Numbered from the stretch's first letter, positions 2,371 to 54,608 are shown. The stretch: DNA of 64,000 bases from Desulfobacterales bacterium (GCA_018693105.1 JABHLN010000004.1:2327-66326); one strand, 5' to 3'. The notes: generated from the letters alone by a model not told the origin. Numbers and translations: made by a program.

Positions 2371-2512
2371 GAGACCTTTGCATAACGTCCCTTTTTGTCC
2401 AATTTCTTCGTCATGCTCAAATTTTAATCCTCGAAATACTCAATGTATTCCTCTGGTTAAAATTTTCGCCTTCCTTGAACTTGAATAAAAATTGACGTTT
2501 TTCAAAGGTCTC
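2371..2512 (+). mobile_element. Family D/F long-hairpin MITE-like element, copy D1
   Basis: 142 bp imperfect palindrome, GAGACCTTTG...CAAAGGTCTC, with apex AATAC-TCAAT-GTATT. Flanked by direct ATATT at 2366-2370 and 2513-2517. The core aligns with the copies at 8978 and 10107. Confidence 0.8.
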
Positions 2513-2565
2513 ATATTACAATTGCTTTTTTGAGTGAGGAATATATTCACCACGGGTGAGCTTTA

Positions 2566-4188
2566 TTATAATTTGCCTGAAAACAGAGTGTCCAGATAGA
2601 ACTTTGTTATAGGATCATTCTTGTCGAAGTTGTGATTATTCTTATTATTCTTTTCAGATATTTCATTTCTTATATCTGTGGCGAGAACTTTACCAAGTTC
2701 GACTCCGAACTGATCAAAAGGATTAATTCCCCAGATAAAGGCCTCAAAGACGGTTCTTGCCTCGTAGAAGGAAAGAAGACGGCCGATATTGGCTGGTGAA
2801 AGATCTTCTATGAGAATTGTTGAAGAAGGGCGATTACCTGAAAAATATTTTGCTTTTTTTGGGTCGTCTTTTCCTATGGCAAGAGCCGAAGGCTGTGAGA
2901 TAAGGTTTGCCCAGAGTTCCTGGTGATTTGTTACCCCTTTTGATTTACTTTTATATTCTTTATATTGCGGGTTGACGACTCCGATAAAGTCAATAGGGAA
3001 ACTTCGCCCCTGGTGTGCAAGCTGGAAAAATGAATGCTGTGCATTTGTTCCCGGTTCTCCGAATATTATTAAACCGGAACTTACATCAAGCTCTTCCCCC
3101 GTCTTTGTTACCGATTTCCCGTTGCTTTCCATATAAAGCTGCTGAACATGGGGTGCAAGTTTAGAAAGGGGTGTGGCATAGGGAATTATACCCTGTGCCT
3201 GATAACCAAGAAAATTATTGTTCCATATACTTATAAGTGCAGCTATAAGAGGTAAGTTCTGTTCAGGTGGTGAATTATTTGCATGAAGGTCCATCTCTTC
3301 TGCCCCTTTAAGGAACTCTTCAAAATTTTCATATCCAATATAAAGGCTCAGAGGAACTCCGCCTACTGCAGAGGTTACACTATACCTTCCTCCGATATAA
3401 TCAAACATATGGAATGTTTCGAGTACAGGGCTTGCAGGATCGTCACCAGGGCTGTTCTTACTTGTAACGGTTACAAAATGTTTAGAAGGATCTAAACCTT
3501 TTCCTTCCATGAAAACAGTTGCCTGCTTTACATTTGCCATTGTTTCAGCAGTAGTATAGGTTTTTGATATTACAACCCAAAGTGTTGTTTCAGGTTCAAT
3601 TTCCGTAATGATAGCCCCGAAATTGTGAATATCAACATTTGCTAAAAAATGAATCTTTATGTTTCTGTCTGCATTAGCTTTCAATGAATGGGCAACAAAC
3701 TCAGAACCAAGGTAAGACCCGCCTATACCGATTACAACGATATGTTTAAACCGTTTACCTGTTGATCCTGTGATTTCACCTGAATGGACTTTTGTTGCAA
3801 ATGTTTTAATTTTATTTCTTACTTCACGTGTTTCAAGCATTATATTGATATCATCAACAATAATGGAGTCAGATGAAAAACTCCTTGTAGCTGTATGAAG
3901 TGCAGCCCTGTTTTCAGTATTATTTACTTTTTCTCCTTTTGTCATTGCATTAAATAATTCTATAGCTTTTCTATTTTCAGCAAGTTCAAACAAAAGGTCC
4001 ATTGTCATTTTGTTAACTCTATGTCGTGAATAATCAAAAAAAATATTGCTGCCTTTATTTGAAAAATTATTCAATCTTTTATTGTCTTTTAATAAATTTT
4101 TCAGGTGCATTTCAGGCTGATGCATCATATCTGCATGATGGGTCAGTTTTTTCCAGACAGGAAATTTAGTAAGTTTTTGATTATTCAT
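2566..4188 (-). CDS. pgi: glucose-6-phosphate isomerase
   Basis: PGI family throughout (e.g. GIGGSYLG, FGEPGTNAQHSF). I moved the start to M22 (MNNQKL), which follows a GAGGAGG RBS. The upstream 21 codons overlap a repeat fragment. Confidence 0.9.
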   Translation of the reverse strand: MNNQKLTKFPVWKKLTHHADMMHQPEMHLKNLLKDNKRLNNFSNKGSNIFFDYSRHRVNKMTMDLLFELAENRKAIELFNAMTKGEKVNNTENRAALHTATRSFSSDSIIVDDINIMLETREVRNKIKTFATKVHSGEITGSTGKRFKHIVVIGIGGSYLGSEFVAHSLKANADRNIKIHFLANVDIHNFGAIITEIEPETTLWVVISKTYTTAETMANVKQATVFMEGKGLDPSKHFVTVTSKNSPGDDPASPVLETFHMFDYIGGRYSVTSAVGGVPLSLYIGYENFEEFLKGAEEMDLHANNSPPEQNLPLIAALISIWNNNFLGYQAQGIIPYATPLSKLAPHVQQLYMESNGKSVTKTGEELDVSSGLIIFGEPGTNAQHSFFQLAHQGRSFPIDFIGVVNPQYKEYKSKSKGVTNHQELWANLISQPSALAIGKDDPKKAKYFSGNRPSSTILIEDLSPANIGRLLSFYEARTVFEAFIWGINPFDQFGVELGKVLATDIRNEISEKNNKNNHNFDKNDPITKFYLDTLFSGKL

Positions 4189-4232
4189 TTGATCCTCCTC
4201 TGTGAATATAAACAATTTAAAAGAGGTATATA

Positions 4233-4280
4233 AAGATTTTTTCTTTGCCACCCCAAGTTGACTTTTTTACGAGTTCATCA
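4233..4280 (+). repeat. Family B right-end fragment
   Basis: aagattttttctttgccaccccaagttgacttttttacgagttcatca matches the right arm and terminus of the B copies at 51092 and 49108. Confidence 0.7.
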
Positions 4281-4370
4281 AAGTTGAAAAGGCGGGGCAA
4301 AGCTTGTAAGGAATTGAGAATGTTTGTGACGATATAGTAATTATATGGGGAGGTCAAGCTATAGAAGCTA

Positions 4371-4697
4371 TTAATCCAATACTTTTCCGCTTCGGGCACG
4401 GTCTATTGATTCATCGAGAGTGGAACCCAGATCTACTCCCAGTTCTTTGGTCCTTTTCTTTGCCCAAAGACCTACATTCCTGGGATCGCCATTCAGACCT
4501 TCATCCGCATGACCCTGAGTGTTGAAATTATTAAGACGCTGAGATTCTGTTTTATGTGCAGTGCATCTTGAAATGATACGCTTAATACCATTTTCCCCGC
4601 AATGCTCACAACATACCAATGCTTCCTCTTCAGGTTTAAGGATAAGTGATGAAGTTATTTTATCACATGCCATGCATTCATATTCATAGATAGGCAT
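4371..4697 (-). CDS. FmdB-family zinc-ribbon protein
   Basis: Begins MPIYEYEC.AC, the typical FmdB N-terminus, with a second CxxC (CCEHCG). 108 aa. Confidence 0.7.
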   Translation of the reverse strand: MPIYEYECMACDKITSSLILKPEEEALVCCEHCGENGIKRIISRCTAHKTESQRLNNFNTQGHADEGLNGDPRNVGLWAKKRTKELGVDLGSTLDESIDRARSGKVLD

Positions 4698-4771
4698 ATT
4701 TAATTCCCGTACTGTATTGAACGTAAATGTTTAAGAATCAGATTAATGGGAAAATCTGATTGATACGTCTT

Positions 4772-4923
4772 TATGACTGGTAAGAAGTATAATCGATGGC
4801 TAAGTAACAATCTTTATATACAAGGCTCAGTGTTTGGCCAGACGTGAAGGCATACATGTAGTATGTCGAACGTTTGGCCAAACACTATAACGTAGTATAT
4901 GGAGACTTTTTACGACCCCATCA
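4772..4923 (-). mobile_element. Family A long-hairpin MITE-like element, full length, reverse orientation
   Basis: The reverse complement reads TGATGGGGTCGTAAAAAGTCTCCATATACTACGTTATAGTGTTTGGCCAAACGTTCGACATACTACATGTATGCC... Its terminal TGA (4921-4923) is the thiolase stop codon. Confidence 0.9.
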
Positions 4924-6162
4924 GGCTTTTAGTATTGTCACTGCAAGCGCAGCTTCCGTGTTGCTCACAGTTCCACCTGCATTTTCAGCAATTCCAATCT
5001 TTGCACCTTCTACCTGTCTTTCACCTGCAGCACCTGTAAGATGCATGTAAAGTTCAACTACCTGGCGCGCTCCTGTTGCTCCTATGGGATGTCCCTGGCA
5101 TTCAAGTCCTCCGGAAACGTTAACAGGTATTTTACCACCAAGTGTTGTATGACCTGCTTCGGTAAATGGTCCGCCTTCTCCTACCGGGCAGAGAAGAAGG
5201 TCTTCAATGGCAACGATTTCACCCAAAGCGGTTGCATCATGAACTTCGGCCAGATCAACATCTTCCGGGCCTATTCCGGCTCTTTCATATGCTTTTTTTG
5301 CAAGTTTGGTCATGGTGGGCTCTTCACCTTCTTTTCTCTCCTGACCACTTGCGACGCAACATGCTGATAACTCAACAGACTTGGATACTCCATTTTTTTT
5401 AGCAAAATCTTCAGAACAGATTATAACAGCAGCTGCACCGTCACCTATAGGAGAGCACATGAGGCGTGTCATAGGTCCTGAAACCACAGGAGATGCAAGC
5501 ACCTCATCAATAGTATAGCTATCCTGATATTGAGCTTTGGGGTTCATTGTTGAGTGGTAATGGTTTTTTGAAGCAACGGCGGCGAATTGTCTCTGTGTTG
5601 TTCCGTACTTTTCCATGTGCATCATTGCAGCAGATGCATATACATCCATGAATATTGTAGGCGTACCGGACTTCTGGGTGCTTGTAGCTTCCGATGTTTG
5701 GGTTTTTTCATGTTCCGCTTTCTGCTTTGCAAAGTTTTCAAGGAATAATTTTACCTCTTCTACATCCATGCAGCCTGTAAAAACGGGAAGTACTTTGCTT
5801 CGATCAGCAAAATACATTTTTTCCATACCGACAACCAGGGCAACATCCATTTCGCCAAGGGCAACCTGAGCCCAGGCTCCGTTTAATGCAAAAGCAGATG
5901 ATGAACATGCATTTTCAACATTTATTATAGGAATTCCGCCGATTCCCATGTTTCTCAAGACAGCCTGTCCGCGTATTGCATACTGTCCTTCAAGACAACC
6001 CTGGCCGACATTTCCCACCCATGCACCATTGAGATGTTCCTTAGTTATATCCGCATCATTTAATGCATCCGTTACAGCTTCTTTTACAAGGGATTTCAGG
6101 TTACGATCCATGTGCCGACCGAATTTTGTCATACCGCAACCGATTATTTTAACCTTACGCAT
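4921..6162 (-). CDS. thiolase-family protein (SCP-x / non-specific lipid-transfer-type acetyl-CoA C-acyltransferase)
   Basis: 413 aa. N-terminus is MRKVKIIGCGMTKFGRH, the active-site region is NACSSSAFAL, and the C-terminal region contains GGLECQGHPIGATG. AGGAGA RBS. Confidence 0.85.
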   Translation of the reverse strand: MRKVKIIGCGMTKFGRHMDRNLKSLVKEAVTDALNDADITKEHLNGAWVGNVGQGCLEGQYAIRGQAVLRNMGIGGIPIINVENACSSSAFALNGAWAQVALGEMDVALVVGMEKMYFADRSKVLPVFTGCMDVEEVKLFLENFAKQKAEHEKTQTSEATSTQKSGTPTIFMDVYASAAMMHMEKYGTTQRQFAAVASKNHYHSTMNPKAQYQDSYTIDEVLASPVVSGPMTRLMCSPIGDGAAAVIICSEDFAKKNGVSKSVELSACCVASGQERKEGEEPTMTKLAKKAYERAGIGPEDVDLAEVHDATALGEIVAIEDLLLCPVGEGGPFTEAGHTTLGGKIPVNVSGGLECQGHPIGATGARQVVELYMHLTGAAGERQVEGAKIGIAENAGGTVSNTEAALAVTILKA

Positions 6163-6192
6163 TATTTAATTTCTCCTTTGAGATGTTATTTT

Positions 6193-6335
6193 TGATGGCT
6201 TCGTAAAAAATATCCATCAACTGCGTTATAGTGTTTGGCCAGACGTTCGGCATACTATTTGTATGCCTTCACGCCCGGCCAAACATTATGCTTTACATAT
6301 TTAAGATGTTTACTTATAAAACATTTTTTATCTTA
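6193..6335 (+). mobile_element. Family A element, full-length left and core, degenerate right terminus
   Basis: TGATGGCTTCGTAAAAAATATCCATCAACTGCGTTATAGTGTTTGGCCAGACGTTCGGCATACTATTTGTATGCCTTCACGCCCGGCCAAACATTATGC... Similarity decays after TACTTA. It lies between two co-directional genes. Confidence 0.85.
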
Positions 6336-6343
6336 AATTTAAA

Positions 6344-8662
6344 CTATTCTTCAATTTCAGGTCCACTTCCACCTTCACGGAACCATGTTACAGGTCTGAA
6401 CTCACGGGGAACCATACCTTCCTGTTTGAATTTAGGATATCCAAGAACCATTGCATTACTGATTTTCCAGGGTTCACTTAAACCTAGTTTTTCTTTGATT
6501 TCCGGTGAGTTTTCCAATACCGCAATAAATCCCACCCAGCAGGATCCAAGACCGAGTGATTTTGCAACAAGTGTCATGTTTTGTCCACATATACCTATTT
6601 GTAAATCAGGCCCGGCTATTGACCTTGTATCAGCAGCCATTAAAATAATAGCCGGTGCATTCATTAATACCGGAAGATCACCGTTAGCTATACAGCCTAC
6701 ACCGCCTACTGCCACTCTCGGGTCCCAGTTTCCAACACTAGGATCAGCTTCATAGACAGGTATTAGTGCTTTTACAAGTGTATCGTTCGAATACGCAGCG
6801 TTTAACATGCCGACTTGAGCTACGGTTGCTTCCTGAAGTTCGTTAATAATCGATTTGTCTGTTATAGCGATAAATTTCCAAGGCTGGCAGTTCCCGGAAC
6901 TTGGTGCGAATCGCCCGGCTTCCATTACTCTTCTGATAAGAGGCTCGGGTACCGGATCATCTTTGTAGTTTCTTATACTTCTTCGTTCAAGAACAGTCTT
7001 TTCAATAATATTCCATTCTGCAGGATTCCCTTCTGCGTCTTTAGGTTCAAGAGGCATTTTAGCAGGGAGAGGATGGGGAGATGTTGCAAATGGTCCATCT
7101 GTAGCATGATAGGATGATACAATGGAAATCGCGTCAGTAGGACATGCTACCATGCAGTTATAGCAACTGAAGCATGCATAACCTTCTTTTAAAACAGGTG
7201 TTTTGTCTTCACTCTCTTCCCAGCATTTGAATGGGCAGTTCAGTATGCAAAGACCGCATTGGGTACATTTTTCGGCATCGCATTTCATAACTCCCATTTT
7301 TATACTATCACCAGGCCTGAAAACAGGTTCTACATCTTCCCATGTCATACCGCCCTCTACAGTAGCTGCAGGGGCAGCAGCCTGAACATTTTCAGCCTTT
7401 ATGTTCAGTATTCCACTGCCTTTTACCAGGTGTGTAGACCCTTCAATCATAAGTGATTCGTTTACACCATCTTCAATAAGACCTAATCTTGCATCGCGGA
7501 ATACCTGTTCGATGTGAAATTCTTTTGAAAGTCCGGGGCTGCCGAATATCTGAACAGCCTGACTTGCTACCCTGAATGCAACCTCTGTACAAAAAGTTTT
7601 TGCTGCAATACCATAATGTGTAGCTATCGGTCTTCCCTGCTTGATTTGCATACTATTATAAACAAGAACCCGACGGCCCAGGGAACGGGCAGCTTCTACT
7701 GAGGCAAACATGTCATAAAGTTTCAATTTGATGTTCTGATGTTCTATAATCGGTTTTCCACCCTGTACCCTGTTTTTTGCATAATCAAGGGCTTCTTCAA
7801 AAGCCGCCTGTGCTAAACCGGTAAAAAATATACCCACGCCGCCGTTAGCTGATCCAAGTTGTGTGTTTGAAAGTTGCCTAAACATTACTGGATCATCGGC
7901 TATCATCATGTATTTTGGAATACGAACATTGTCAAAATAGATTTCACCCTGATTCAATGATCTTTGTCCCATTTTAACAAGCGGTTTCCCTCTTGTAACA
8001 CCGGGAAGATCAAGAGGCATTACCACTATTCCTCCGCCTTGATTTCCCTTGGAAGGATCTAGTGAAACCCATATTACACCATGTGTTGCTATGGTTCCGT
8101 TGCTGACCCATGCGGCTTTCTGACCGTTAATAATATATGAATCTCCATCTGCAACTGCTGTAACTCCATATGCACATTTGGGATTTGTGGCGACTTCGCC
8201 TTCGAAAAATAATGAATCACCGCCATGGTCAGGCTCTGTTATACCCCAGCATCCGATCATTTTACCTTCTTTGTCGGCACAGAATTGTTTAACCAATTCC
8301 TGCATTTCCGGGGCAGGAGACATCATTGCATATAAATAGGGCTGGGAACTGGCAAGTATAGATGTTGAAAGACCAACATCGGCCCAGCCAAACTGTTCAA
8401 GGAGGATTGCCATTGTTAAAGGATCATCAATACCAAGACCTCCGAAATCTTCAGGGATGTTCATGATGGTATAATCCATTGCAATGGATTTTTTAAATGC
8501 ATCCCACAAAGGAGAATTATCAGCAATTACATCCTCCGGAGTGGCAAATTTGTCAAGCTCAACGCCAATAGGCCGTATTACTTCCGAGACAAATTTTCTG
8601 GTTTCTTTCCAGAAAGAAAAGTGTTCCTTGGTAAAATCAATGTTAAGTTCTCTTAATCCCAT
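6344..8662 (-). CDS. fusion protein: acyl-CoA dehydrogenase domain + 2x[4Fe-4S] ferredoxin domain + nitroreductase (FMN) domain
   Basis: 772 aa. Residues ~1-415 are ACAD-like (GCWGITEPDHGGD, IFGSPGLSKEFHIEQVFRDARL). The middle carries CTQCGLCILNCP and CFSCYNCMVACP. The C-terminus is nitroreductase-like (RRSIRNYKDDPVP, PSSGNCQPWKF). GGAGGG RBS. Confidence 0.85.
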   Translation of the reverse strand: MGLRELNIDFTKEHFSFWKETRKFVSEVIRPIGVELDKFATPEDVIADNSPLWDAFKKSIAMDYTIMNIPEDFGGLGIDDPLTMAILLEQFGWADVGLSTSILASSQPYLYAMMSPAPEMQELVKQFCADKEGKMIGCWGITEPDHGGDSLFFEGEVATNPKCAYGVTAVADGDSYIINGQKAAWVSNGTIATHGVIWVSLDPSKGNQGGGIVVMPLDLPGVTRGKPLVKMGQRSLNQGEIYFDNVRIPKYMMIADDPVMFRQLSNTQLGSANGGVGIFFTGLAQAAFEEALDYAKNRVQGGKPIIEHQNIKLKLYDMFASVEAARSLGRRVLVYNSMQIKQGRPIATHYGIAAKTFCTEVAFRVASQAVQIFGSPGLSKEFHIEQVFRDARLGLIEDGVNESLMIEGSTHLVKGSGILNIKAENVQAAAPAATVEGGMTWEDVEPVFRPGDSIKMGVMKCDAEKCTQCGLCILNCPFKCWEESEDKTPVLKEGYACFSCYNCMVACPTDAISIVSSYHATDGPFATSPHPLPAKMPLEPKDAEGNPAEWNIIEKTVLERRSIRNYKDDPVPEPLIRRVMEAGRFAPSSGNCQPWKFIAITDKSIINELQEATVAQVGMLNAAYSNDTLVKALIPVYEADPSVGNWDPRVAVGGVGCIANGDLPVLMNAPAIILMAADTRSIAGPDLQIGICGQNMTLVAKSLGLGSCWVGFIAVLENSPEIKEKLGLSEPWKISNAMVLGYPKFKQEGMVPREFRPVTWFREGGSGPEIEE

Positions 8663-8977
8663 TGTTACCCTCCTTGGAAATTTTTTTAGAAATCATAATG
8701 ATTAAAGTTATTAAACGGTAGTTTATGTGTGTTATATTAAATTTTGATGAATTATTATTTAATATTAAAGTTCACAATTTTATAAATTGGATCATTTTCT
8801 ATTAAGCCTATTTTAAATATTTATAATAAAAATAAATACCTTAAGCAGCTAACCGACTAACTGGATTGTTGACAGGTCAGCTGGTCGGTCATCAAGATTG
8901 ATAAGAAATCTTTATAAGAAAGTCAAGTCATTATTTTTATAAAAAACGGCTGATTATTATTATTGAATTGAGATTCG

Positions 8978-9123
8978 ATAGTGTTCATCCAGAAATGAGG
9001 ATTTTTGTTCAAGATCAAGACATGCGAAAAAAATAACCACAGGCTTATGTTTGATATTCCGAGGATTATTTTTTGAGCATAACGAAGATATTGGGAAGAA
9101 GACCATTTCAGGATGTGCACTAT
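8978..9123 (-). mobile_element. Family D/F element, copy F1
   Basis: Termini ATAGTGTTCATCCAGAAATG... and ...CATTTCAGGATGTGCACTAT are inverted. About 91% identical by hand count (10 mismatches over 117 bp) to the reverse complement of 10141-10256. Confidence 0.8.
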
Positions 9124-9273
9124 ATTAAGATGTTCTGATTTCACCTAATTTATATAAGAAAATATGAATAGTTGATTCAGAATTTGAGATGATTGTTTTT
9201 TACATGTTTCTATGCTAATTAGATAATAATAATATATCTTTTACAATAGAACGTATAAATATCAGAGCCTTTT

Positions 9274-9450
9274 ATGTTTTTAAGTATTAAGGAATCATAT
9301 AGAAAAGCAGTTTTTTATTTTATCAAGCGACCTTATTTTATATTTCTGATATTAATCGGGTTTATGCTTGAGTTTATTATCAATTTCCCTTTTATGTTAT
9401 TATTAGCTCTTGAAAAAGGAACTATAAGAGAAGAATCAGATTTAAAATAA
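9274..9450 (+). CDS. possible 58-aa small membrane protein
   Basis: Hand-found ORF below the track cutoff: MFLSIKESYRKAVFYFIKRPYFIFLILIGFMLEFIINFPFMLLLALEKGTIREESDLK. It has a hydrophobic core, no clear RBS and no recognisable family. Confidence 0.25.
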   Translation: MFLSIKESYRKAVFYFIKRPYFIFLILIGFMLEFIINFPFMLLLALEKGTIREESDLK

Positions 9451-9472
9451 CAGAGAATTAAGGAGTATTTGA

Positions 9473-10027
9473 ATGAAGTTTTTTTATCAGCTATTATTAA
9501 TACTTGCTATATCTATTTCAGGTACTGCATGGAGTGAACAGAATTTTGATGAAGCAGAAAAACTTTGGAAAAACAATAAACATGTTGAATCTATGGAGTT
9601 TTATCAGAAAGCGCTTGATTCAGGGAAACTTTCAAAAAAACAAATTGTAAGATCTCATTATAATAGAGGATTTGCAATTTTTAAGCTTATGTCCGAGGTT
9701 GATGGAGCTATTAAGGAGCTTGATGAGGTTCTTAAACTTGAGCCGGATAATGCTGATGCATACTGCCTTAGGGCAGATGCTTTGAGCATTGTTCAAAAAT
9801 ATAAAGAAGCTGTCCCGGACTGGAAGATGTCTCTTGAAATAAATCCTGATGATCCCATTACATACATTAACCGCAGCTATTATTTTGAAGAAAACGGAAA
9901 TATCGACAGGGCATTAGAAGATCTTGAAAATTATATTGAGCTTTTTGATGAATATACCCCTGTTGACATGAGAAGGCTTGAGATTCTAAAAGATATGCAG
10001 TCAAAGGGCATGAAAAAAAGATATTAG
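9473..10027 (+). CDS. secreted TPR-repeat protein
   Basis: Signal peptide MKFFYQLLLILAISISGTAWS and several TPR-like repeats (e.g. AYCLRADALSIVQKYKEAVPDWKMSLEINPDD). AAGGAG RBS. Confidence 0.75.
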   Translation: MKFFYQLLLILAISISGTAWSEQNFDEAEKLWKNNKHVESMEFYQKALDSGKLSKKQIVRSHYNRGFAIFKLMSEVDGAIKELDEVLKLEPDNADAYCLRADALSIVQKYKEAVPDWKMSLEINPDDPITYINRSYYFEENGNIDRALEDLENYIELFDEYTPVDMRRLEILKDMQSKGMKKRY

Positions 10028-10106
10028 CATTAACGGTTTTCATAAATATTTTCTTTCTTGAATATGATGAAAATATATTTTTATATGCTAATAGCAGGTG
10101 TTTAAT

Positions 10107-10256
10107 TAGTCACTATCCGGTCCCGCCAAAGCGGGATTTCCAATATCTTCGTTATACTCAAAAAAGAATCCTCGGAGTATCAAACATATACCCGCGGTTA
10201 TTTTTTTAGCATGCCTTGATCTTGAACAAAAATCCTCATTTCTGGATGGACACTAT
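10107..10256 (+). mobile_element. Family D/F element, copy F2
   Basis: The core CCAATATCTTCGTTATACTCAAAAAAGAATCCTCGGAGTATCAAACATAT aligns with D1 (CCAATTTCTTCGTCATGCTCAAATTTTAATCCTCGAAATACTCAATGTAT). The right terminus is ...CATTTCTGGATGGACACTAT. Confidence 0.8.
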
Positions 10257-10404
10257 GTTAGTAATTAAGAAAACATTCTATTTTGGCTTTCAGGTATAAT
10301 TGAATTATTCTTTACAAAGCCAAAACATATAAATATTGGTTCCACAACCTCCTTCCAGATTTTGATTTTGCCAAATTTAATTATAAAATTAGAGGCTTTT
10401 AACC

Positions 10405-11399: not shown

Positions 11400-11428
11400 T
11401 TGACACGAATATTTGATTTTATTATAAC
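11400..11428 (+). promoter_or_regulatory. candidate sigma70-type promoter upstream of pepA
   Basis: TTGACA (11400-11405), 17 nt spacer, TATAAC (11423-11428). Sequence pattern only. Confidence 0.3.
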
Positions 11429-16662: not shown

Positions 16663-16666
16663 ACCT

Positions 16667-16810
16667 TGATGGTGTCGTAAAAAGTCTCCATCTACTGCGT
16701 TATAGCGATTGGTCAGACACTCGACATACTGCATGTATGCCTTCACCCCTGATCAACCGTTATGCCTTGTATATGAAGATTTCTACTTAGTCATCGGTAC
16801 GAGTTCATCA
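16667..16810 (+). mobile_element. Family A element, full length
   Basis: TGATGGTGTCGTAAAAAGTCTCCATCTACTGCGTTATAGCG...GGTACGAGTTCATCA. Flanked by direct ACCT (16663-16666 and 16811-16814). Starts 4 nt after the cysS stop. Confidence 0.9.
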
Positions 16811-16857
16811 ACCTTAATACTTCTTTTTTTTATTTTATAGAGTTTTACTGTTATTAC

Positions 16858-20725: not shown

Positions 20726-20879
20726 TGATGGCGTCGTAAAAAGTCTCCATCTACTGCGTCGTAGCGGTTGATCAGAAGTTCGACATACTGCATGTATGCC
20801 TTCACTCCTGATCAACCGCTATGCCTTGTATATGAAGATTTCTACTTAGCCATCGTTAGTACTTTTTACGAGTTCATCA
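20726..20879 (+). mobile_element. Family A element, full length
   Basis: TGATGGCGTCGTAAAAAGTCTCCATCTACTGCGTCGTAGCGGTTGATCAG...CTGATCAACCGCTATGCC...ACTTTTTACGAGTTCATCA. Flanked by direct ACAA (20722-20725 and 20880-20883). Confidence 0.92.
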
Positions 20880-21079
20880 ACAATAATAGTTAACTGATTT
20901 GACAAAATGGCTAAAATATTGATTATAGTATAATAACTTGTGTTTTATAACGGTTTTGCAGTGCTTGTTTAGAGAAATGTATACTTTTTTGAGCATTACT
21001 GAGTATGTTTATGAAAAAGTCATGGCGAATAGTACTGATTGATAATAATAAAGAATTGTTATATATAAAACTTCAAATA

Positions 21080-36224: not shown

Positions 36225-36231
36225 AGATTGA

Positions 36232-36289
36232 TTCCTTGTATATGAAGATTCTTATTTACCCATCGGATATATTTTTTGCGACGCCATCA
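36232..36289 (+). repeat. Family A right-arm fragment ending in an inverted left-type terminus
   Basis: TTCCTTGTATATGAAGATTCTTATTTACCCATCGGATATATTTTTTGCGACGCCATCA. Confidence 0.75.
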
Positions 36290-38737: not shown

Positions 38738-38792
38738 AAATGTATATGAAGATTTTTACTTAGCCATCGGTTATATTTTTTACGAGTTCATC
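38738..38792 (+). repeat. Family A right half
   Basis: AATGTATATGAAGATTTTTACTTAGCCATCGGTTATATTTTTTACGAGTTCATCA. Confidence 0.8.
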
Positions 38793-39213
38793 AGTTTTAA
38801 TAAAGTAACAAATAAGTGCCGTGTTTGCATATTATTGAAAATTATTTGGGGTTTTTTCGCCGTAACTAATACTTTTATTAACAACATAATTAATATATAA
38901 TTCAAATATACATATATGAATAAACTACGTTACAAAAGTAAGTTTTATCTTGACATAACGATAACTTTTATCTATCGATCGATACTTTTAATTAATATTA
39001 AAATTTTATTAATTGGTATTAAGTGCCAAGTATACGATCGCTTTCTTAAATTCCGAGTTATATCTGGGATACAGGCATGAATTATTAGCAGGCTATCAAT
39101 GATTTAATTAACAACCTTGAAAAGCTGAATTATAATATTTTTTAAATATCTGATATGTTTTATGTGAGAAGTATCTATAACCCGCTTTAAACAAGTTATT
39201 TATGGAGGTTAAA

Positions 39214-40853: not shown

Positions 40854-40905
40854 TCTTCTTTTGTGAATTTCATCTACTTTACCTGTACAAGCACCGCTTC
40901 ATTAT

Positions 40906-40995
40906 TGATGGCTTCGTAAAAAGTATATCCAATGGCTAAATAAAAGTCTCCATACAAAATGTATGGTTTTATGGGAGATTTTTGTATATACAAAA
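40906..40995 (+). repeat. Rearranged family A derivative
   Basis: TGATGGCTTCGTAAAAAGTATATCCAATGGCTAAATAA is a left terminus joined to right-arm-like sequence. It is followed by the short hairpin GTCTCCATACAAAATGTATGGTTTTATGGGAGAT. Confidence 0.6.
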
Positions 40996-42302: not shown

Positions 42303-42653
42303 ATGAGTATTCTTAAGAACATCGTAAAAAAAGGTAAAAATGCAACGCTATCAATAGGTCTCGAGAGTGTTTTTAAAAATATAGTAAAAGAATATGCTGA
42401 TTTATTGTATTTCAAATTTGATTCCAGTAAAAGTTTTCTTGAGTTTGACCTCATGTTAAAAGATGAACTTTCATCACTTAAAGTAAGAATAGAAAATTTT
42501 AATATTTTAAAAAAGAATAATCATCACTATATTATTATTCCAGAACTGACTACTTCAAGGGAATGGATTAATACTATAGCCAAAGAGTATATTGTTGATA
42601 AGGAAATATTATTACCTGATGAATATGCAACATTTTATGAAATGATAACGTGA
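42303..42653 (+). CDS. hypothetical protein
   Basis: 116 aa ORF, 34 nt downstream of the SprT-like gene, with no recognisable family. Its stop TGA is the first three bases of the next family A element. Confidence 0.45.
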   Translation: MSILKNIVKKGKNATLSIGLESVFKNIVKEYADLLYFKFDSSKSFLEFDLMLKDELSSLKVRIENFNILKKNNHHYIIIPELTTSREWINTIAKEYIVDKEILLPDEYATFYEMIT

Positions 42654-42806
42654 TGGCGTCGTAAAAAGTCTCCATCTATTGCGTTATAGTTGTTTATCAG
42701 AAGTTCGACATACTACATGTATACCTTCACTCCTGATAAACAATTATGCCTTGTATATGAAGATTTTTGCTTAGCCATCGGTTATAATTTTTTACAAGCT
42801 CATAAT
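42651..42806 (+). mobile_element. Family A element, full length (right terminus slightly degenerate)
   Basis: TGATGGCGTCGTAAAAAGTCTCCATCTATTGCGTTATAGTTGTTTATCAG...CTGATAAACAATTATGCC...TTTTTTACAAGCTCATAA. Confidence 0.9.
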
Positions 42807-48854: not shown

Positions 48855-49107
48855 AAGGGCCTCCTTTCTCCGGATGAAGTTTTACCACTATTCTGGAGAA
48901 ACGCCATTGAACATCTGGATGTCTTACTATTTAATATTTAGCCAATGTCAGGGATAAAAAAATAGTATGGAGTATCTATTCCAAATGTTCAAAATTATTT
49001 CAGGTAAGAGTACGATTTAACAAAAAATATTACATGATCGGAAAAGTTATGTCAAACCGGTCTGATCAAAACCAGCCTATCTATTGACCATTATCTTCAA
49101 TTAACCA

Positions 49108-49242
49108 TGATGAACTTGTAAAAAATCAACTTGGGATGGCAAAGCAAAAAGTTCAAGATCAAGGCGCCGCAAATCCCGAGGAATGAAGCGTACTAATTGT
49201 ACGCTGTAGTGACGAGGGGTGTAGCGCAACGTAGATATTGAC
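49108..49242 (-). mobile_element. Family B element (left terminus replaced by the adjoining family A copy)
   Basis: TGATGAACTTGTAAAAAATCAACTTGGGATGGCAAAGCAAAAAGTTCAAG...AGCGTACTAATTGTACGCT...GTAGCGCAACGTAGATATTGAC. The reverse complement aligns with 51092-51221. Confidence 0.8.
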
Positions 49243-49384
49243 TCGTAAAAAAAACCGATGGATAAGTAGAAATCTTCATATACAAGGCATAGAGTTTGGT
49301 TCGGTGTGAAGGCATACGTGTAGTATGTCGAATACCTGGCCAAACTCTATAACGCATTAATGGAGACATTCTACGACGCCATCA
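49238..49384 (-). mobile_element. Family A element, full length, reverse orientation, abutting family B
   Basis: ...ACTCGTAAAAAAAACCGATGGATAAGTAGAAATCTTCATATACAAGGCATAGAGTTTGG...CCAAACTCTATAACGCATTAATGGAGACATTCTACGACGCCATCA. The terminal TCA (49382-49384) is the stop codon of the SPOR gene. Confidence 0.88.
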
Positions 49385-50881
49385 ACGTTTGACAACTTCA
49401 GGATTGAAAGACAACCCCCGGAGTCTTTTTATTTGTTCGGAAGTCTCTTTTTCCGAACTGAATGCTCCGGCAAGAAATCGAAGTCTTTTTTCGGAATTTT
49501 TAAGCGGTATTATGTATGGGATAAAACCTTTATGTATTAACTTTGAGTTGATATCTTTCATGTTATGCTCTTTATCAAAAACCCCTATCTGAATTGTATA
49601 AGGCATTTTAACTGTGATTGCATCTTTAAACATTCTATTATTAAGTTTATTCATCTCTTTTTTTGCTTCAGTATATGATCCGTAAAAACCGATGAAAACA
49701 CGATAAAAAACTCCTGTTTCCGGGATACGTGCCGGAGATGTGAAAGCAGGTTCTCCGGCACTTCTCAACTGGGTTGTCAGACGCTGTGATGTCTTTATAT
49801 CTTTTAAAGAACATACCTGGATAGTATAGGGGTAATAGCCGCTTTTATCAGGCTTATTTCCTGTTTTATTGTATAGCGTAGTTACTTCTTTTTCAGCTTT
49901 GTGAATAATTTTTTTGTACTTTTTTCTTTTAATAATTTTTTTCGCTACAAGTTCATTATGCCATGGCCTGCCTGTATTATAATGCTCCAGGTGGGCTTTG
50001 TATTCTGAAAGGTTGTCGCTTTCATTCTCATTGTTTAGAAATTTAATAGCTTTTTTCTGAATAAGTTTTGCCGCTGTAAAATCACCGGCTTCTGCATATG
50101 CTGCAGCCAGCACATCAAGAGATTCTGCATTCTTAATAAAACCGTACCCTTTTCTTGCCATCAATACAGCTTTTTTGCCATTTCTATGGCGGGAGTCAGG
50201 ACAGCTTGACAGTATTTTTGACAACTCAAAATATGCTTCAGCTGATAAGGGGTTAATTTCAATTGCTTTTTCAAAATCGGAGATTGCAGGATCATAATTG
50301 CCTTTTGCGTTAAAAATCAATCCCCGGTTGAAATGTACTTCCGAAAACCTCTGAATAATATCATTATATCCTGAAACATTTTTTTCAGAAATTTTTGAGT
50401 AGACAGGGTTTGATTCAATATCTTTTGTATAATCTGCTATTGCTCTGCCGTAGTTTCCTTTAGCAGCCCAGGATGCTGCACGGTTGTAATATGCCTCACT
50501 GTAATTAGGATTGATTTCTATGGCTTTTGTATAATCTGCTATTGCATTGTCGGTGTTGCCTTTGGCCGCCCATGCAACACCTCGATTGCAGTATGCATCG
50601 GCAAAACCAGGGCTAATCGTTATGGCCCGAGTGTAATCCTTTATAGCTTCATCATATTTACTTATATAGAAAAATGCTATTCCCCGGTTACTGATGGCCA
50701 CGAAATCATGTGGAATTGTTTCAATTGTTGTAGAAAAAGCTTTAATAGCATCTTCGTAACTCCCGGAGTTTAAATACTTAATCCCAAGTTCAAAACTGTC
50801 TTCAAAACAGTAGGATGTTCGTGGATGCAAAAGAAGTACAGATATCGTCAATAATAATATGAGTGTTATAAATTTTTTCAT
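49382..50881 (-). CDS. TPR-repeat + SPOR-domain (peptidoglycan-binding) protein
   Basis: Signal/anchor MKKFITLILLLTISVLLL, multiple TPR repeats (AYCNRGVAWAAKGNTDNAIADYTKAIEINP...), and two SPOR-like repeats at the C-terminus (YTIQVCSLKD..YRVFIGFYGSYTEAKK; YTIQIGVF). Start moved to M16. Confidence 0.8.
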   Translation of the reverse strand: MKKFITLILLLTISVLLLHPRTSYCFEDSFELGIKYLNSGSYEDAIKAFSTTIETIPHDFVAISNRGIAFFYISKYDEAIKDYTRAITISPGFADAYCNRGVAWAAKGNTDNAIADYTKAIEINPNYSEAYYNRAASWAAKGNYGRAIADYTKDIESNPVYSKISEKNVSGYNDIIQRFSEVHFNRGLIFNAKGNYDPAISDFEKAIEINPLSAEAYFELSKILSSCPDSRHRNGKKAVLMARKGYGFIKNAESLDVLAAAYAEAGDFTAAKLIQKKAIKFLNNENESDNLSEYKAHLEHYNTGRPWHNELVAKKIIKRKKYKKIIHKAEKEVTTLYNKTGNKPDKSGYYPYTIQVCSLKDIKTSQRLTTQLRSAGEPAFTSPARIPETGVFYRVFIGFYGSYTEAKKEMNKLNNRMFKDAITVKMPYTIQIGVFDKEHNMKDINSKLIHKGFIPYIIPLKNSEKRLRFLAGAFSSEKETSEQIKRLRGLSFNPEVVKR

Positions 50882-50958
50882 TTCCGCAAGGTGATCTTTT
50901 AAAGAATTTTCATATAAACTCGACATAACATTAATTAAGCTTTTGTATCGATATCATA

Positions 50959-51028
50959 ATATGTAGTATGTCGAGTGTCCGGCCAAACGCTCTAACACAG
51001 TATATGGAGACTTTTTACGACGCCATCA
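50959..51028 (-). repeat. Family A left half (apex to left terminus)
   Basis: ATATGTAGTATGTCGAGTGTCCGGCCAAACGCTCTAACACAGTATATGGAGACTTTTTACGACGCCATCA. Bracketed by a 28-bp direct repeat (50931-50958 and 51030-51057). Confidence 0.8.
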
Positions 51029-51091
51029 ATTAATTAAGTTTATGTATCGATATCATATAGTCATATTCATCTTCAATTCTTTTATTAAATT

Positions 51092-51221
51092 TGATGGCTT
51101 CGTAAAAAGTCTAATATCTGCGTTGCGCTACATGCCTCGTCACTGCGGCGTACGATAAGTACTCCTCATTCCTTGAACTTTTTATTTTGCCATCCAAAGT
51201 TCACTTTTTACGGGTTCATCA
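51092..51221 (+). mobile_element. Family B element, full length
   Basis: TGATGGCTTCGTAAAAAGTCTAATATCTGCGTTGCGCTACATGCCTCGTCACTGCGGCGTACGATAAGTAC...TTGCCATCCAAAGTTCACTTTTTACGGGTTCATCA. Flanked by direct AATT (51088-51091 and 51222-51225). Confidence 0.88.
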
Positions 51222-51225
51222 AATT

Positions 51226-51250
51226 TGATGGTGTCGTAAATCCCGCTTAA
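51226..51250 (+). repeat. Solo left terminus joined to an ATCCCGCT unit
   Basis: TGATGGTGTCGTAAATCCCGCTTAAGC. The unit AATCCCGCTATAGG recurs at 52408 and 54702. Confidence 0.6.
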
Positions 51251-51384
51251 GCTTGAATAAAAACCACTTTTACGCTTATTTTATATAGAGCAACCACATG
51301 AATTAATACAAAAACATAATGACATTGAGTTGTTGGGTTGCTATAATAAAAATTTGTTAATAATTTAATTATGAGGGTAATGCT

Positions 51385-51957
51385 TTGGGGAAAGTCCTGA
51401 TTATACTGCTTTTCATTGTAATTCCCGTTCATGCACAATCTTTTGAACGGTATAACAATGTTGTTAAGTATGATAAATATTTTTCAAAATATTCAAAAAG
51501 ATATTTTGGCGCATCGTTTGACTGGAAATATTTCAAAGCCCAGGCGATTGCCGAATCAAATCTGAAAAGTGATGCAAAATCTCATGTCGGGGCTGAAGGG
51601 GTTATGCAGATTATGCCACGGACCTTTAAAGAAATTAAATATAAAAACCCGAGTATAAAAGGTAATCGTAAACAGCCGAGATGGAATATTGCTGCGGGCA
51701 TATATTATGACCGGTATATATGGAAAACCTGGAAAGCAGAACGTTCTTTTAATGACAGGCTTAACTTTATGTTTGGTTCGTATAATGCGGGGAAGGGTAA
51801 TATCATAAAGGCTCAAAAAATATCCGGACGAAAAGGTATGAATGAGAATATCTGGAGATCAATTGAGAAAACTTTGCCGGAGGTTACAAAAGATAGAAGT
51901 AAAGAAACCATCGGATATGTTAAAAAAATTAATATAATCAAGGAGGTATTGAAGTGA
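51385..51957 (+). CDS. lytic transglycosylase (SLT domain), secreted
   Basis: TTG start after GAGGGT. Signal peptide (L)GKVLIILLFIVIPVHA and SLT motifs AESNL, GAEGVMQIMPRT, YNAG. Confidence 0.8.
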   Translation: MGKVLIILLFIVIPVHAQSFERYNNVVKYDKYFSKYSKRYFGASFDWKYFKAQAIAESNLKSDAKSHVGAEGVMQIMPRTFKEIKYKNPSIKGNRKQPRWNIAAGIYYDRYIWKTWKAERSFNDRLNFMFGSYNAGKGNIIKAQKISGRKGMNENIWRSIEKTLPEVTKDRSKETIGYVKKINIIKEVLK

Positions 51958-52190
51958 TGCAGTCTGTTGATATTTCAATTACAATTATGAATTTCTGCTA
52001 TGCTTTTTTTGGAGCAGTATTGACGATACTTTTTATGATTGTCGGATATAAAATATTTGACAAAATGACTCCGTTCAATACTTCAGAACAGCTTGAGAAT
52101 AAAAATATCGCTGTAGGTATTGTGGTTGGATCGATTTTTATCGGGCTGGGGATTGCCATAGGGATGGTTATTGGTATGGGCCTTAATTAA
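51954..52190 (+). CDS. DUF350-like small membrane protein
   Basis: 78 aa with two TM segments and NIAVGIVVGSIFIGLGIAIG. 4-nt overlap with the SLT gene. Confidence 0.6.
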   Translation: MMQSVDISITIMNFCYAFFGAVLTILFMIVGYKIFDKMTPFNTSEQLENKNIAVGIVVGSIFIGLGIAIGMVIGMGLN

Positions 52191-52336
52191 GATGGCGTCG
52201 TTAAAAGTCTCCATCTACTGCGTTATAGCGTTTTGCCAGACGTTCGACATACTACTTGTATGCCTTCACGCCTGGCAAAAAACCATGCCTTGTATATGAA
52301 GATTTTAACTTAGCCATCAGGTATGATTACGTAGTT
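52191..52336 (+). mobile_element. Family A element, full length (first base of terminus missing)
   Basis: GATGGCGTCGTTAAAAGTCTCCATCTACTGCGTTATAGCGTTTTGCCAG...CTGGCAAAAAACCATGCC...CCATCAGGTATGATTACGTAGTT. It starts directly after the TAA of the DUF350 gene. Confidence 0.88.
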
Positions 52337-52364
52337 AAAATTCTCTATCTAACCCTCTGAATAG

Positions 52365-52426
52365 TATATGAAAATTTAATTTAACCATCGGTTATGATTA
52401 TGTCGTTAATCCCGCTATAGGTGGAC
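52365..52426 (+). repeat. Duplicated family A right arm plus AATCCCGCTATAGG unit
   Basis: TATATGAAAATTTAATTTAACCATCGGTTATGATTATGTCGTT repeats 52293-52336, and is followed by AATCCCGCTATAGGTGGAC. Confidence 0.7.
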
Positions 52427-52466
52427 TATTACGTTAAAGGGTCTAATAAAGGAATAGAAAAGAGTA

Positions 52467-52865
52467 ATGACTGATAAAGAGAGTTTTGATTTTTGGCAGG
52501 ATCATTCCATACATTATCTTGAGATGGCATTTGGACATGAGCGTAGAGAAAGAGTATCTCACCCTGATGGCTATGGCAAGAGGACCGGTGATTGCGGTGA
52601 TACCGTTGAATTTTTTTTGACAATAGAAAGTGACAGGGTCAGTAGTGTTGCTTTCGATACTGACGGCTGCCTGAATACGAACGCATGTGCCAATACAATA
52701 GCTCACATGTCTGAAGGCAGTGAAATCAGTGAAGCCTGGGAAATTAGCCCTGATAAGGTTATTGATTTTCTCGGCACATTACCTCCCCATGAACATCATT
52801 GCGCGGAACTTGCTGTAGGTGCTTTTTATCTGGCGCTGTCAAATTATGAGGAGATAAAACCCTGA
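52467..52865 (+). CDS. NifU/IscU N-terminal-like Fe-S cluster scaffold protein
   Basis: Conserved Cys pattern GDCGDTVEFF...DGCLNTNACAN...HCAELAV; 132 aa. Confidence 0.7.
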   Translation: MTDKESFDFWQDHSIHYLEMAFGHERRERVSHPDGYGKRTGDCGDTVEFFLTIESDRVSSVAFDTDGCLNTNACANTIAHMSEGSEISEAWEISPDKVIDFLGTLPPHEHHCAELAVGAFYLALSNYEEIKP

Positions 52866-52903
52866 TCATTAAGGTTCTTTCTTAACTATTTGTTATATTT
52901 TTT

Positions 52904-52928
52904 GGTTATATTTTTTACGAGTTTTTCA
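52904..52928 (+). repeat. Family A right-terminus fragment
   Basis: GGTTATATTTTTTACGAGTTTTTCA. The terminal TCA (52926-52928) is the stop codon of the minus-strand aminopeptidase gene. Confidence 0.65.
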
Positions 52929-54125
52929 ATATGAAAACTTCCCGTTTTCATAAATTATTATCTTTTTCCCGTCTTTTAGATGCGCTGTCACTCTTTTCTT
53001 TTCTGTATTTACTATATCCCAGTGAAGTGCTGAATCATTAAAGCCTAACTTTTTCTTCAATTCCTTTGTCAGTTTAGATGAATCTCCATTATATGTGTCA
53101 GAATATGAAGAACCAAGGGCTATATGGGAATTTCCATTTTCCCCTCCGTAATTTTCATCAAAAAGAGTGTTTGCCATAAATTGGTTTATTTTTGAAAATC
53201 TTTTATCAGTCAGTGAAAACTCTCCTATCTTGTTTGCGCCTTTGTCCATAGCGAACTGTTTTTTTACAAAGTTTTCGCCTTTCTGTGCCTGGATTTTAAC
53301 AACCGAACCTTTCTTGAACTCGAGTTTTATATTGCTCACATAATTCCCGCTTCTGTATGAAGGTTGGTCTGCAAAGTAGGTGCCCCTGGTTCCCCTCCAG
53401 TCGGGTGAAAGAAAAAGTTCAAAACTTGGAATGTTATGGCCCGAAATTCCGATCCACCTTCTTTTTTCTCCGGGGGTTATCTCAAGGTCCATGTTAGCTG
53501 ATTCCATATGATATTTTTTTACATCCATGCCGTTAATCCATTTCTTTATGGAAATTGCTTCTTTGTATATCTTTTCCCATTCGTCTACAGGTGATTTCCT
53601 GTTAAGAAAACATGCTTTTACTATCTGGTTTGTATATTCTTTCTGGGACAGCTTGGCATGCTTTGCAAGTTCTTTGGTTGGATATGTGCATAATGTCCAG
53701 CCAAAAGTCCCTTTTTCCTCGCGCTTGTTAAGTATATCGCGCATCGGTTTTCTTGCAACCGCGGTCTTTCCGATTTTAAATGGGTCTATACCGCTTAAGT
53801 GTGTTATTGATTCAGGGGCGTGCAGGAAAATACTGCCATTCATGTTCTTGTATAATTCTTCATCTCCAGGTGGAATAAAAGTCAGCTGGGGGTTGTTTGA
53901 GATTTCATAAAATTTCTGTTCCATTCCTGAAGTGGGCATAATTCGAAGGACCGGATGCCATCCTTTTTCAAGAATTTTGGCAAAAAGAACTTCTGCAAGT
54001 TTTAAAGCAGGTATATTAAAACGGATTACAATTATATCATTTTTTTTTTGTTTACCGGATCTTGCTGTTTTAAGACCCCACAATAAAACATCGGCATACC
54101 TTTCTATTTGTTTATCTGTAAACAT
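52926..54125 (-). CDS. aminopeptidase, M29 (AmpS/PepS-like) family
   Basis: 399 aa. The overall pattern resembles thermophilic M29 metalloproteases (YADVLL..GL, a C-terminal HIALGSSY-like motif, HWDIV). Confidence 0.6.
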   Translation of the reverse strand: MFTDKQIERYADVLLWGLKTARSGKQKKNDIIVIRFNIPALKLAEVLFAKILEKGWHPVLRIMPTSGMEQKFYEISNNPQLTFIPPGDEELYKNMNGSIFLHAPESITHLSGIDPFKIGKTAVARKPMRDILNKREEKGTFGWTLCTYPTKELAKHAKLSQKEYTNQIVKACFLNRKSPVDEWEKIYKEAISIKKWINGMDVKKYHMESANMDLEITPGEKRRWIGISGHNIPSFELFLSPDWRGTRGTYFADQPSYRSGNYVSNIKLEFKKGSVVKIQAQKGENFVKKQFAMDKGANKIGEFSLTDKRFSKINQFMANTLFDENYGGENGNSHIALGSSYSDTYNGDSSKLTKELKKKLGFNDSALHWDIVNTEKKRVTAHLKDGKKIIIYENGKFSY

Positions 54126-54153
54126 AAATACTTCCTCCGTTCTGCTTGAAAGT

Positions 54154-54399
54154 TTATTTTGATCCTTTTAAAAAAAGTTTATGATATTCCGGCTCTGTCA
54201 TGTGATTTTTCATTAGACGGTTTATCATATTGAATATCTCTTCCAGCTCTTCGTCCGTTAGTTTTGTAATCAGATGTTCCATCAGTTTATCATCGGAAAA
54301 TTTCTGCAGGTAGTATATTACAGTGTTCTCATCGGTTTTTCGATCCAGCCCGAATCCAACAAGATCAGTATAATTTTCTACAAAATCATGTGTATGCAT
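54154..54399 (-). CDS. hypothetical protein
   Basis: 81 aa acidic helical ORF, co-directional with and 28 nt upstream of the aminopeptidase gene. No recognised family. Confidence 0.45.
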   Translation of the reverse strand: MHTHDFVENYTDLVGFGLDRKTDENTVIYYLQKFSDDKLMEHLITKLTDEELEEIFNMINRLMKNHMTEPEYHKLFLKGSK

Positions 54400-54465
54400 T
54401 GTCGTTGCCTTATTATATTCGTTTATGTATGTTTACCAAGATGTTAGTATCTGCAAATAAATAAT

Positions 54466-54608
54466 AGAAGCTATCTCAAATAAAAGATCAGGGTTCATGG
54501 CAAGGCAACAAAGGGGCGAGAAAGCAGAGCATACTATTAGTATGTGAGCATTTTGAGCCGCTTTGTAACGCTGCCAGGGGCACTTAGATTTATTTTGAGT
54601 TAACTTCT
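54466..54608. repeat. Family C long imperfect palindrome
   Basis: AGAAGCTATCTCAAATAAAAGATC...GCATACTATTAGTATGTG...TTAGATTTATTTTGAGTTAACTTCT. 143 bp, apex CATACT-ATT-AGTATG. Single copy in the window. Confidence 0.7.

Follow-up and report, generated by a model that had tools for sequence, protein, structure and literature searches.

Hairpin repeats of a Desulfobacterales genome combine a shared core with several types of terminal inverted repeat

The stretch of DNA described here (the window, 64,000 nucleotides, contig C106:2327-66326) belongs to the 3.24-Mb metagenome-assembled genome (MAG) of a Desulfobacterales bacterium, a fragmented assembly of 171 contigs with ~38% G+C and a completeness of 91.8%. 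Between its genes, which were mapped for context as crude open reading frames (ORFs) of at least 100 amino acids, lie copies of several hairpin-repeat families, designated A, B, C, D, and F, and the relationship among these families is the subject of this report. On the crude gene map, 24 copies or fragments fill 2.6 kb, or ~23% of the ~10.9 kb of intergenic DNA; the original prediction had called this share large, and its hand count of ~2.9 kb is lowered by the computed value. All the B, C, and D/F copies that it named are present, within 1–4 nt of the positions given there. The copies are listed below with their scores against R1, a covariance model that was built from 21 aligned D/F-type cores of 13 genomes, with the structure predicted by RNAalifold, and run over the window without filters (its E-values are rough).

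2370..2512, plus strand: D, full-length, ends GAGACC...GGTCTC, 5-bp duplication ATATT; core folds better on the minus strand (R1 106.8 bits on minus, E 2.6e-23)
4237..4281, plus strand: B fragment, right end, consensus positions 112-155
4776..4923, minus strand: A (R1 37 bits)
6192..6316, plus strand: A, diverged
8979..9122, minus strand: F, full-length, ends TAGTG...CACTA (R1 93.1 bits on plus, E 5.7e-20)
10107..10255, plus strand: F, main part 10140-10255, with a degenerate left end reaching to ~10107 (R1 73 bits on minus, E 4.4e-15)
10121-10136: GC hairpin TCCCGCCAAAGCGGGA, nested in the preceding F copy
16666..16811, plus strand: A (R1 41.3 bits)
20726..20880, plus strand: A (R1 46.2 bits)
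36231..36289, plus strand: A fragment, right end
38741..38793, plus strand: A fragment, right end
40905..40954, minus strand: A fragment, right end
42651..42803, plus strand: A (R1 43.6 bits)
49108..49240, minus strand: B, with A-type ends and B core
49241..49385, minus strand: A, directly abutting the B copy 49108-49240 (R1 26.4 bits)
50961..51029, minus strand: A fragment, left half
51091..51222, plus strand: B with an internal deletion
52191..52324, plus strand: A (R1 46.9 bits)
54465..54609, plus strand: C, full-length, ends TAGAAGCTATCTCAAA; the better-folding strand is plus (R1 28.4 bits on plus, E 3e-4)
54665..54702, minus strand: A fragment, end
54784..54813, minus strand: A fragment, end
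58791..58945, plus strand: A (R1 49.5 bits)
58941..58995, minus strand: D fragment, left end, absent from the original prediction
58997..59032, minus strand: A fragment, end
60961..61115, plus strand: A (R1 43.1 bits)

The two F copies are inverted relative to each other, are 91% complementary over 120 nt, and bracket a 184-aa TPR-repeat gene (9473-10027). The layout of this unit (window 8979-10255) is like that of a composite transposon, and the unit was seen only once.

Comparison of each window copy with the MAG by BLAST revealed that every family is a genome-wide repeat. Family A gave 479 non-redundant hits (256 of at least 110 nt), B gave 110 (70), C gave 53 (38), D gave 49 (22), and F gave 42 (20), and a further 43 hits (25) belong to C2, a new variant that has C-type ends and the C apex around different stems. 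Family C, previously described as a single palindrome, is therefore single only within the window. De novo clustering, in which a self-BLAST of the genome was followed by single-linkage clustering, found 705 regions with at least five copies (104 kb in total) and recovered exactly these families, with 355 regions in A, 79 in B, 41 in C, 12 in C2, and 51 in a single cluster that unites D and F; ~100 of the clustered regions represent minor families. The six families A, B, C, C2, D, and F together cover 83.5 kb, which is 2.6% of the genome and ~14% of its intergenic DNA (~584 kb), and they are dispersed over most contigs. They are non-coding and almost always intergenic, only 2 of ~430 longer copies being located inside a predicted gene.

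The consensus sequences, derived from flank-inclusive alignments, have sharp ends and lengths of 143–156 nt (A/B ~155, C 144, D 143, and F 149 nt), and all are bounded by terminal inverted repeats (TIRs) of 17–20 nt. The A/B consensus starts with TTGATGGC(G/T)TCGTAAAAAGT and ends with ACTTTTTACGAGTTCATCAA, its TIRs being TTGATGGCGTCGTAAAAAGT and ACTTTTTACGAGTTCATCAA; the TIRs of C are TAGAAGCTATCTCAAAA; D extends from (T)GAGACCTTTGCA to CAAAGGTCTC with the TIR GAGACCTTTGCA; and F extends from TAGTGCCCATCCAGAAATG to CATTTCTGGATGGACACTA with the TIR TAGTGCCCATCCAGAAATG. Target duplications were evaluated as flanking direct repeats against a control of shuffled partners. Family A is flanked by duplications of 6 bp, sometimes 7 bp, at AAnnTT-like targets (at most one mismatch in 83/163 copies, compared with 12% of shuffled partners), B by duplications of 6 bp (18/43, compared with 13%), and D by duplications of 5 bp (14/19, compared with 7%). 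Exact 6-bp TAnnTA duplications surround the GTG...CAC ends of the F class and of a related class, N, in other genomes (L115, L150, L160, L216, and L217). Families A, B, C/C2, D, and F are all small (below ~600 bp) and non-coding, carry TIRs and, in A/B, D, and the F/N class, fixed-length duplications, and occur in many dispersed copies; they are transposable elements of the miniature inverted-repeat type (MITEs). The Correia/NEMIS repeats of Neisseria and the ERIC/IRU repeats of enterobacteria are bacterial MITEs with TA duplications that are confined to a genus or family, and the present elements resemble them in being non-coding, mostly intergenic sequences of 100–160 nt, present in tens to hundreds of copies, with TIRs, short duplications, and the fold of an imperfect palindrome.

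Two further kinds of repeat were observed in the same genome. Several small families of 5–10 copies each (e.g., at C124:9307, C24:14935, and C117:59051) are unrelated to the hairpin superfamily and include two with GATATC-containing ends and one repeat of 260 nt. A 16-nt GC hairpin, TCCCGC-nnnn-GCGGGA, is nested in copies of A, B, D, and F, including the window copy noted above, and was located at ~20 genomic sites (e.g., C104:12182, C131:17221, C84:23541, and C128:51658), where it usually stands in place of the A/T-run linker between end and core; it resembles one more small module common to the families.

The similarity between families was scored for each pair against 300 mononucleotide shuffles, none of which reached the observed score. 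A and B are collinear over their whole length (z 25.6), and D and F share a core with ~80% identity over 110 nt (z 44.8). B and F share the box GCCTTGATCTTGAAC at 15 of 15 positions (z 6.6), and the apex is shared by A with D (19/22, z 5.9) and, as the reverse complement, with C (16/17, z 5.8). The ATAC-loop-GTAT apex that had been proposed as common is present in A, C, and D; that of B (GCGTAC-loop-GTACGC) differs in sequence, as had already been stated, and the likeness between families goes beyond the apex to the whole core. An nhmmer profile of D/F-type cores matches 56 copies of B over profile positions 7–96, which is nearly the whole profile. R1, although trained only on D/F-type cores, matches each of the window's eight full-length A copies with 26–50 bits (E 1e-3 to 2e-9), and its matches to D, F, A, and C in the window span the full model and always lie on the predicted strand. 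As controls, the opposite strands gave 15–35 bits, and unrelated Rfam hairpin models run on the same elements gave 13–24 bits, which was taken as the baseline for a generic hairpin. Measured against this baseline, the link of A to the shared core is solid and that of C is modest. The cores of all the families, and not their apices alone, are homologous.

Each copy is built in three layers, with family-specific TIRs on the outside, an A/T-run linker, and a common imperfect hairpin core of ~100 nt. In the R1 alignment, the better-folding strand of the core contains a 5′ box (..TTCAnnnnCAAGG..), after which come a stem of variable sequence, the apex AGG(C/A)ATAC-loop-GTAT(G/T)TCGA, and a 3′ box TA-TAACG(A/C)AG...TGG. 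In more general form, the apex reads AGG-MATAY-loop-RTATK-YCGA and the 3′ box ..UAACGnAG...TGG, and compensating changes preserve the pairing of the stem. The core is not restricted to this MAG. Among 151 genomes sampled across the phylum Desulfobacterota, R1 detects it at 80–111 bits in 22 genomes from ~15 families, and a search with the F consensus yields, in many relatives, matches limited to the core (positions 28–125). A scan of the species collection for the apex pattern found at least 120 stretches, the matches listed including Desulfosarcina alkanivorans, Desulfobulbus rhabdoformis, Desulfogranum mediterraneum, Desulfobacterium sp. N47, Desulforhopalus, Desulfocapsa, Syntrophobacterales, and Syntrophaceae. 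In a genome of ~38% G+C, in which several of the common motifs are short, likeness between families could in principle arise by chance; however, z values of 5.8–45 with no shuffle among 300 reaching the observed score, profile and covariance-model matches along the full length, the recovery of the core in 22 of 151 genomes, and the chimeric copies described below leave this explanation a negligible probability.

The consensus hairpin of the core comprises 35 base pairs, 17 of which show compensatory changes in the alignment of 21 cores from 13 genomes. In the folding of the individual families, which the original prediction had recommended, one strand of every consensus folds much better than the other: with RNA parameters, the better and the other strand reach −60.6 and −38.5 kcal/mol in D, −65.6 and −49.8 kcal/mol in F, −73.2 and −55.9 kcal/mol in C, and −69.2 and −57.5 kcal/mol in A. 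DNA energy parameters give the same better strand, and this is the homologous strand in all families. In the 13-genome alignment, the same strand is the more stable one in 21/21 cores and has 64 G·U pairs compared with 7 A·C pairs, a count that is inflated because the structure was predicted on that strand, whereas the comparison of free energies is free of such bias. Single copies also agree with the same strand in D (21/21), F (14/14), C (33/37), C2 (18/23), and A (71/80). Within family A, divergence is as low in the boxes and the apex (0.06–0.08) as in the left end, and the inner stem is hypervariable (0.26) and is still paired through subfamily-specific compensated variants; this is what one would expect were propagation to depend on the boxes, the apex, and the pairing.

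A conserved structure with such strong strand asymmetry, conserved G·U pairs, compensatory changes, and conserved unpaired boxes, retained across families of the phylum, might also be expected of an RNA used by the host, for instance as a small RNA, as a terminator, or to stabilize mRNA, with the repeats having spread because they are useful. However, the better-folding strand is the sense strand in only about half of the co-directional gene contexts (B 17/31, C 11/26, C2 8/16, D 11/16, and F 5/9), and this random orientation argues against a strand-dependent RNA role at the level of the host. The elements also carry TIRs and target duplications, and they match no Rfam family: in the Rfam search of the window, only two tRNAs reached the gathering threshold, and the elements matched eukaryotic microRNA hairpin models only below it. 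A host-used RNA is therefore considered an unlikely explanation. Family A is biased against the direction of the flanking genes (43/143), and a bias against the local GC skew is shown both by A (64/219 on the G-rich strand) and by B (19/63); genome-wide, no bias in GC skew or gene direction was seen for C, C2, D, and F. The orientation bias of A/B goes with the end type and not with the core.

The assignment of core type and end type for ~400 copies gives an almost diagonal table with three exceptions. In C117:44697, a B core that is 97.8% identical to the B consensus is located within intact F ends, and the joints lie in the common boxes CCAATATCT and GCCTTGATCTTGAAC. C166:6138 has a D-like core within F-like ends. 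In C89:662 (C89:552-862), the left end of A/B and a B core are joined to the right end of D within CCTTGA(T/A)CTTGAAC, indicating recombination between two loci or elements, and possibly a genome rearrangement. Other unusual combinations are a D/F-like frame within C-type ends (C92:26057) and yet other TAGTG/TAGTA ends at C51:370 and C88:29325.

The same core is surrounded by at least eight end classes across the phylum, namely F (TAGTGYCCATCCAGAAATG), N (TAGTGYCTGAACGAAAAC), D (GAGACCTTTGAAAAATG), H (GAGCCACTTTCAAAACG), E (GAGCCTCTTGCAAAATG), G (GGGTGYCTTGAAAAAT), S (TGAGTCTGTTGATTTAAT), and R (TAGGAGGCTGTC), in addition to rarer classes and to A/B and C in this MAG. These classes grade into one another and have a common layout, in which T(T/C)(G/T)(A/C)AAAA comes after 7–9 variable bases at the tip, which suggests that some of the diversity may have arisen by gradual divergence. 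On a FastTree core tree (77 cores, ~98 nt, weakly resolved), the end class changes 26 times, compared with a minimum of 7 and with a mean of 50.6 (minimum 40) for shuffled labels; a number between the two extremes indicates that cores and ends partly co-diverge and partly reassort. A related arrangement was observed in the MAG Deltaproteobacteria bacterium WB1_Bin_16 (L165:1-450), where three tandem cores lie within one pair of ends of another type, AATTCCGCGGGACGGC, showing that the core can multiply within a single element.

These observations bear on whether the families have simply diverged vertically from one ancient MITE, their ends co-evolving with transposases and no modules being exchanged. 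The graded end classes with their common layout would fit such a history, as would the partial clustering of cores by end class (26 changes, where shuffling gives 50.6 on average) and the agreement of core and end type in all but 3 of ~400 copies. Against it stand the three chimeras, including the nearly unaltered B core within intact F ends, the 19 changes on the tree above the minimum, and the differing lengths of the duplications (4, 5, and 6–7 bp, and TA), and vertical divergence without exchange is judged improbable. The proposal of a modular superfamily with exchanged termini and cores is supported instead by the clustering, the R1 and profile matches, the chimeras, the number of end classes, and the core tree, with the amendment that some of the variety among ends seems to reflect related ends drifting apart gradually.

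TIRs and fixed-length duplications point to DDE enzymes. Insertion sequences (ISs) with corresponding ends were sought. ISNCY elements (NF033593) in relatives encode a 497-aa DDE transposase related to IS5 and have the ends TAGTGCCTGAACGAAAACC / TAGTGTCTGAACGA... and TAGTGGTTGACCGAAAA / TAGTGCCAGACCGAAAA. The ISNCY ends TAGTG(C/T)CTGAACGAAAAC / TAGTGCCTGAACGAAAAC agree with the ends of N-class MITEs at almost every base and are similar to the F ends TAGTGCCCATCCAGAAATG; MITE copies with ISNCY-matching ends are found at L057, L119, and L160, and in G004 (L034), an F-type end, TAGTGTCCATCCAGAAAT, is located ~180 nt from the remnant of an ISNCY transposase. The TAGTG-type ends, that is, the F and N classes and these two only, thus have a putative ISNCY-family partner on the basis of the end match. 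The possibility that the core is an internal sequence of an IS was rejected, since R1 has no match in 11 IS loci, and, as the ISNCY copies lack the core, the MITEs are not simple derivatives by internal deletion.

Other candidate partners were considered. IS21 is not supported as a source of the A/B ends, since no A/B-type end borders any of 16 IS21 loci, each from a different relative (a limited sample), and no IS21 transposase was found in the MAG. Three ISL3 loci in relatives lack matching ends, and the G040 copies differ in their ends. In G031, orphan B-type ends turned out to be truncated B elements, weak ISNCY-like matches in D-rich genomes have no D ends, and half-element matches in relatives lie mostly at contig ends or beside ordinary genes. 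A self-BLAST of the MAG for long repeats recovered paralogous genes only, with no near-identical long repeats.

The MAG does contain one intact Y1_Tnp gene of the IS200/RAYT type (HUH; C150:19277-19636, E 3.9e-39), and this gene, together with the strand-specific fold, which is also obtained with DNA energy parameters, and the lack of a detectable DDE_Tnp_1 transposase in the MAG, raises the question of whether the elements are hairpins of the REP/BIME kind that are moved as single-stranded DNA by a Y1 (HUH) transposase of the RAYT or IS200 type. Transposition by Y1 enzymes (IS200/IS605, REP/RAYT) yields neither TIRs nor fixed-length target duplications, both of which are present here, and none of the hairpin families flanks the Y1_Tnp gene. 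Like REP/BIME sequences, the present elements are abundant intergenic imperfect hairpins with a strand-specific fold; unlike REPs, which measure 20–40 nt, have no TIRs and no fixed duplication, and flank a RAYT gene, they are far longer, at 143–156 nt. As the F and N ends moreover match a DDE insertion sequence, mobilization by a Y1 enzyme is regarded as highly improbable.

Taken as a whole, the families are very probably best explained as trans-mobilized MITEs in which family-specific TIRs have been swapped around a shared hairpin core that may aid propagation. The outer repeats would be recognized by transposases acting in trans, and the differing duplications (6–7 bp at AAnnTT in A/B, 5 bp in D, and TAnnTA in F) imply that different enzymes or enzyme subtypes may be involved. 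New families would arise by replacement of the ends around the conserved core, an outcome that is seen in the chimeras; the replacement probably proceeds in part as elements recombine, or undergo gene conversion with one another, at the short shared boxes CCAATATCT and GCCTTGATCTTGAAC, and the ends would in part also change by gradual divergence. In the least certain step, the foldback and the conserved boxes may help the element propagate; the core could bring the two ends together, or it could bind a factor while one strand is single-stranded. We favor, and hold loosely, a cis role of the core in trans-mobilization, as opposed to a service as host RNA.

Several observations weigh against this explanation. 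In the MAG, no match was found to NF033593, NF033546, NF033550, or PF01609 (ISNCY_1, IS21, ISL3, and DDE_Tnp_1 models), so mobilization in this genome is unproven; the copies may be fossils, or the ISs may have gone unassembled. Neither the MAG nor the relatives searched yielded a partner for the A/B, C, or D ends, and orphan D-type ends in G143, G176, and G109 adjoin housekeeping genes. The hexamers flanking F copies in the MAG are imperfect versions of TAnnTA, and C/C2 copies are flanked only by a TA that is indistinguishable from part of the repeat, with no further duplication. Concerning the core, the R1 score of C (28 bits) exceeds that of a generic hairpin by no more than a modest margin, and B scores poorly (15 bits), its link being provided by the sequence profile instead. 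The strand asymmetry of B is weak (30/50 single copies), in B, C, D, and F the diversity per site is about even along the element and so offers no separate indication that the core is constrained, and the core tree, based on ~98 nt, is poorly resolved.

Compared with Correia/NEMIS and ERIC/IRU, in which a single end type defines the family, the present elements retain one core with at least eight end classes and differing duplication lengths, and the core has a conserved strand-specific fold and a phylum-wide distribution. The ISNCY elements share their ends with the N class and similar ends with F but lack the core, and the A/B, C, and D ends matched no IS. The nearest analogy appears to be offered by the CORE-SINE, V-SINE, and Deu-SINE superfamilies of short interspersed nuclear elements (SINEs) of animals, in which a conserved central domain is combined with differing termini that decide the mobilizing autonomous element. 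The likeness lies in one conserved center with differing terminal parts; SINEs, however, are retrotransposons copied via RNA by the enzymes of long interspersed nuclear elements, whereas the elements described here are bacterial DNA elements with inverted repeats and duplications. A survey of prokaryotic MITEs describes interiors as variable and families as defined by their ends, with conserved MITEs rarely crossing genus limits (PMC11602168). Here, the interior is the conserved part, being structured, strand-asymmetric, and phylum-wide, and the ends vary, which is the reverse of the usual rule for MITEs. A search of the literature returned nothing relevant on MITEs in Desulfobacter-type bacteria or on ISDol1.

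A stronger proposal, which we put forward tentatively and regard as doubtful, is that the core is a functional strand-specific structured module, acting as RNA or single-stranded DNA, that has persisted across Desulfobacterota by taking on, time and again, the ends that belong to the transposase active at the time. If this were true, the boxes CAAGG and UAACGnAG and the apex would bind a specific host or transposase factor, and the core would be the equivalent, among bacterial DNA transposons, of the SINE superfamilies with a conserved core. On the broader explanation given above, a core that helps propagation would constitute a cis-acting feature of trans-mobilization, and the swapping of ends at short common boxes offers a concrete route for the birth of new MITE families. 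The elements fragment assemblies, and the hybrid at C89:662 implies that they are able to mediate rearrangements of the genome.

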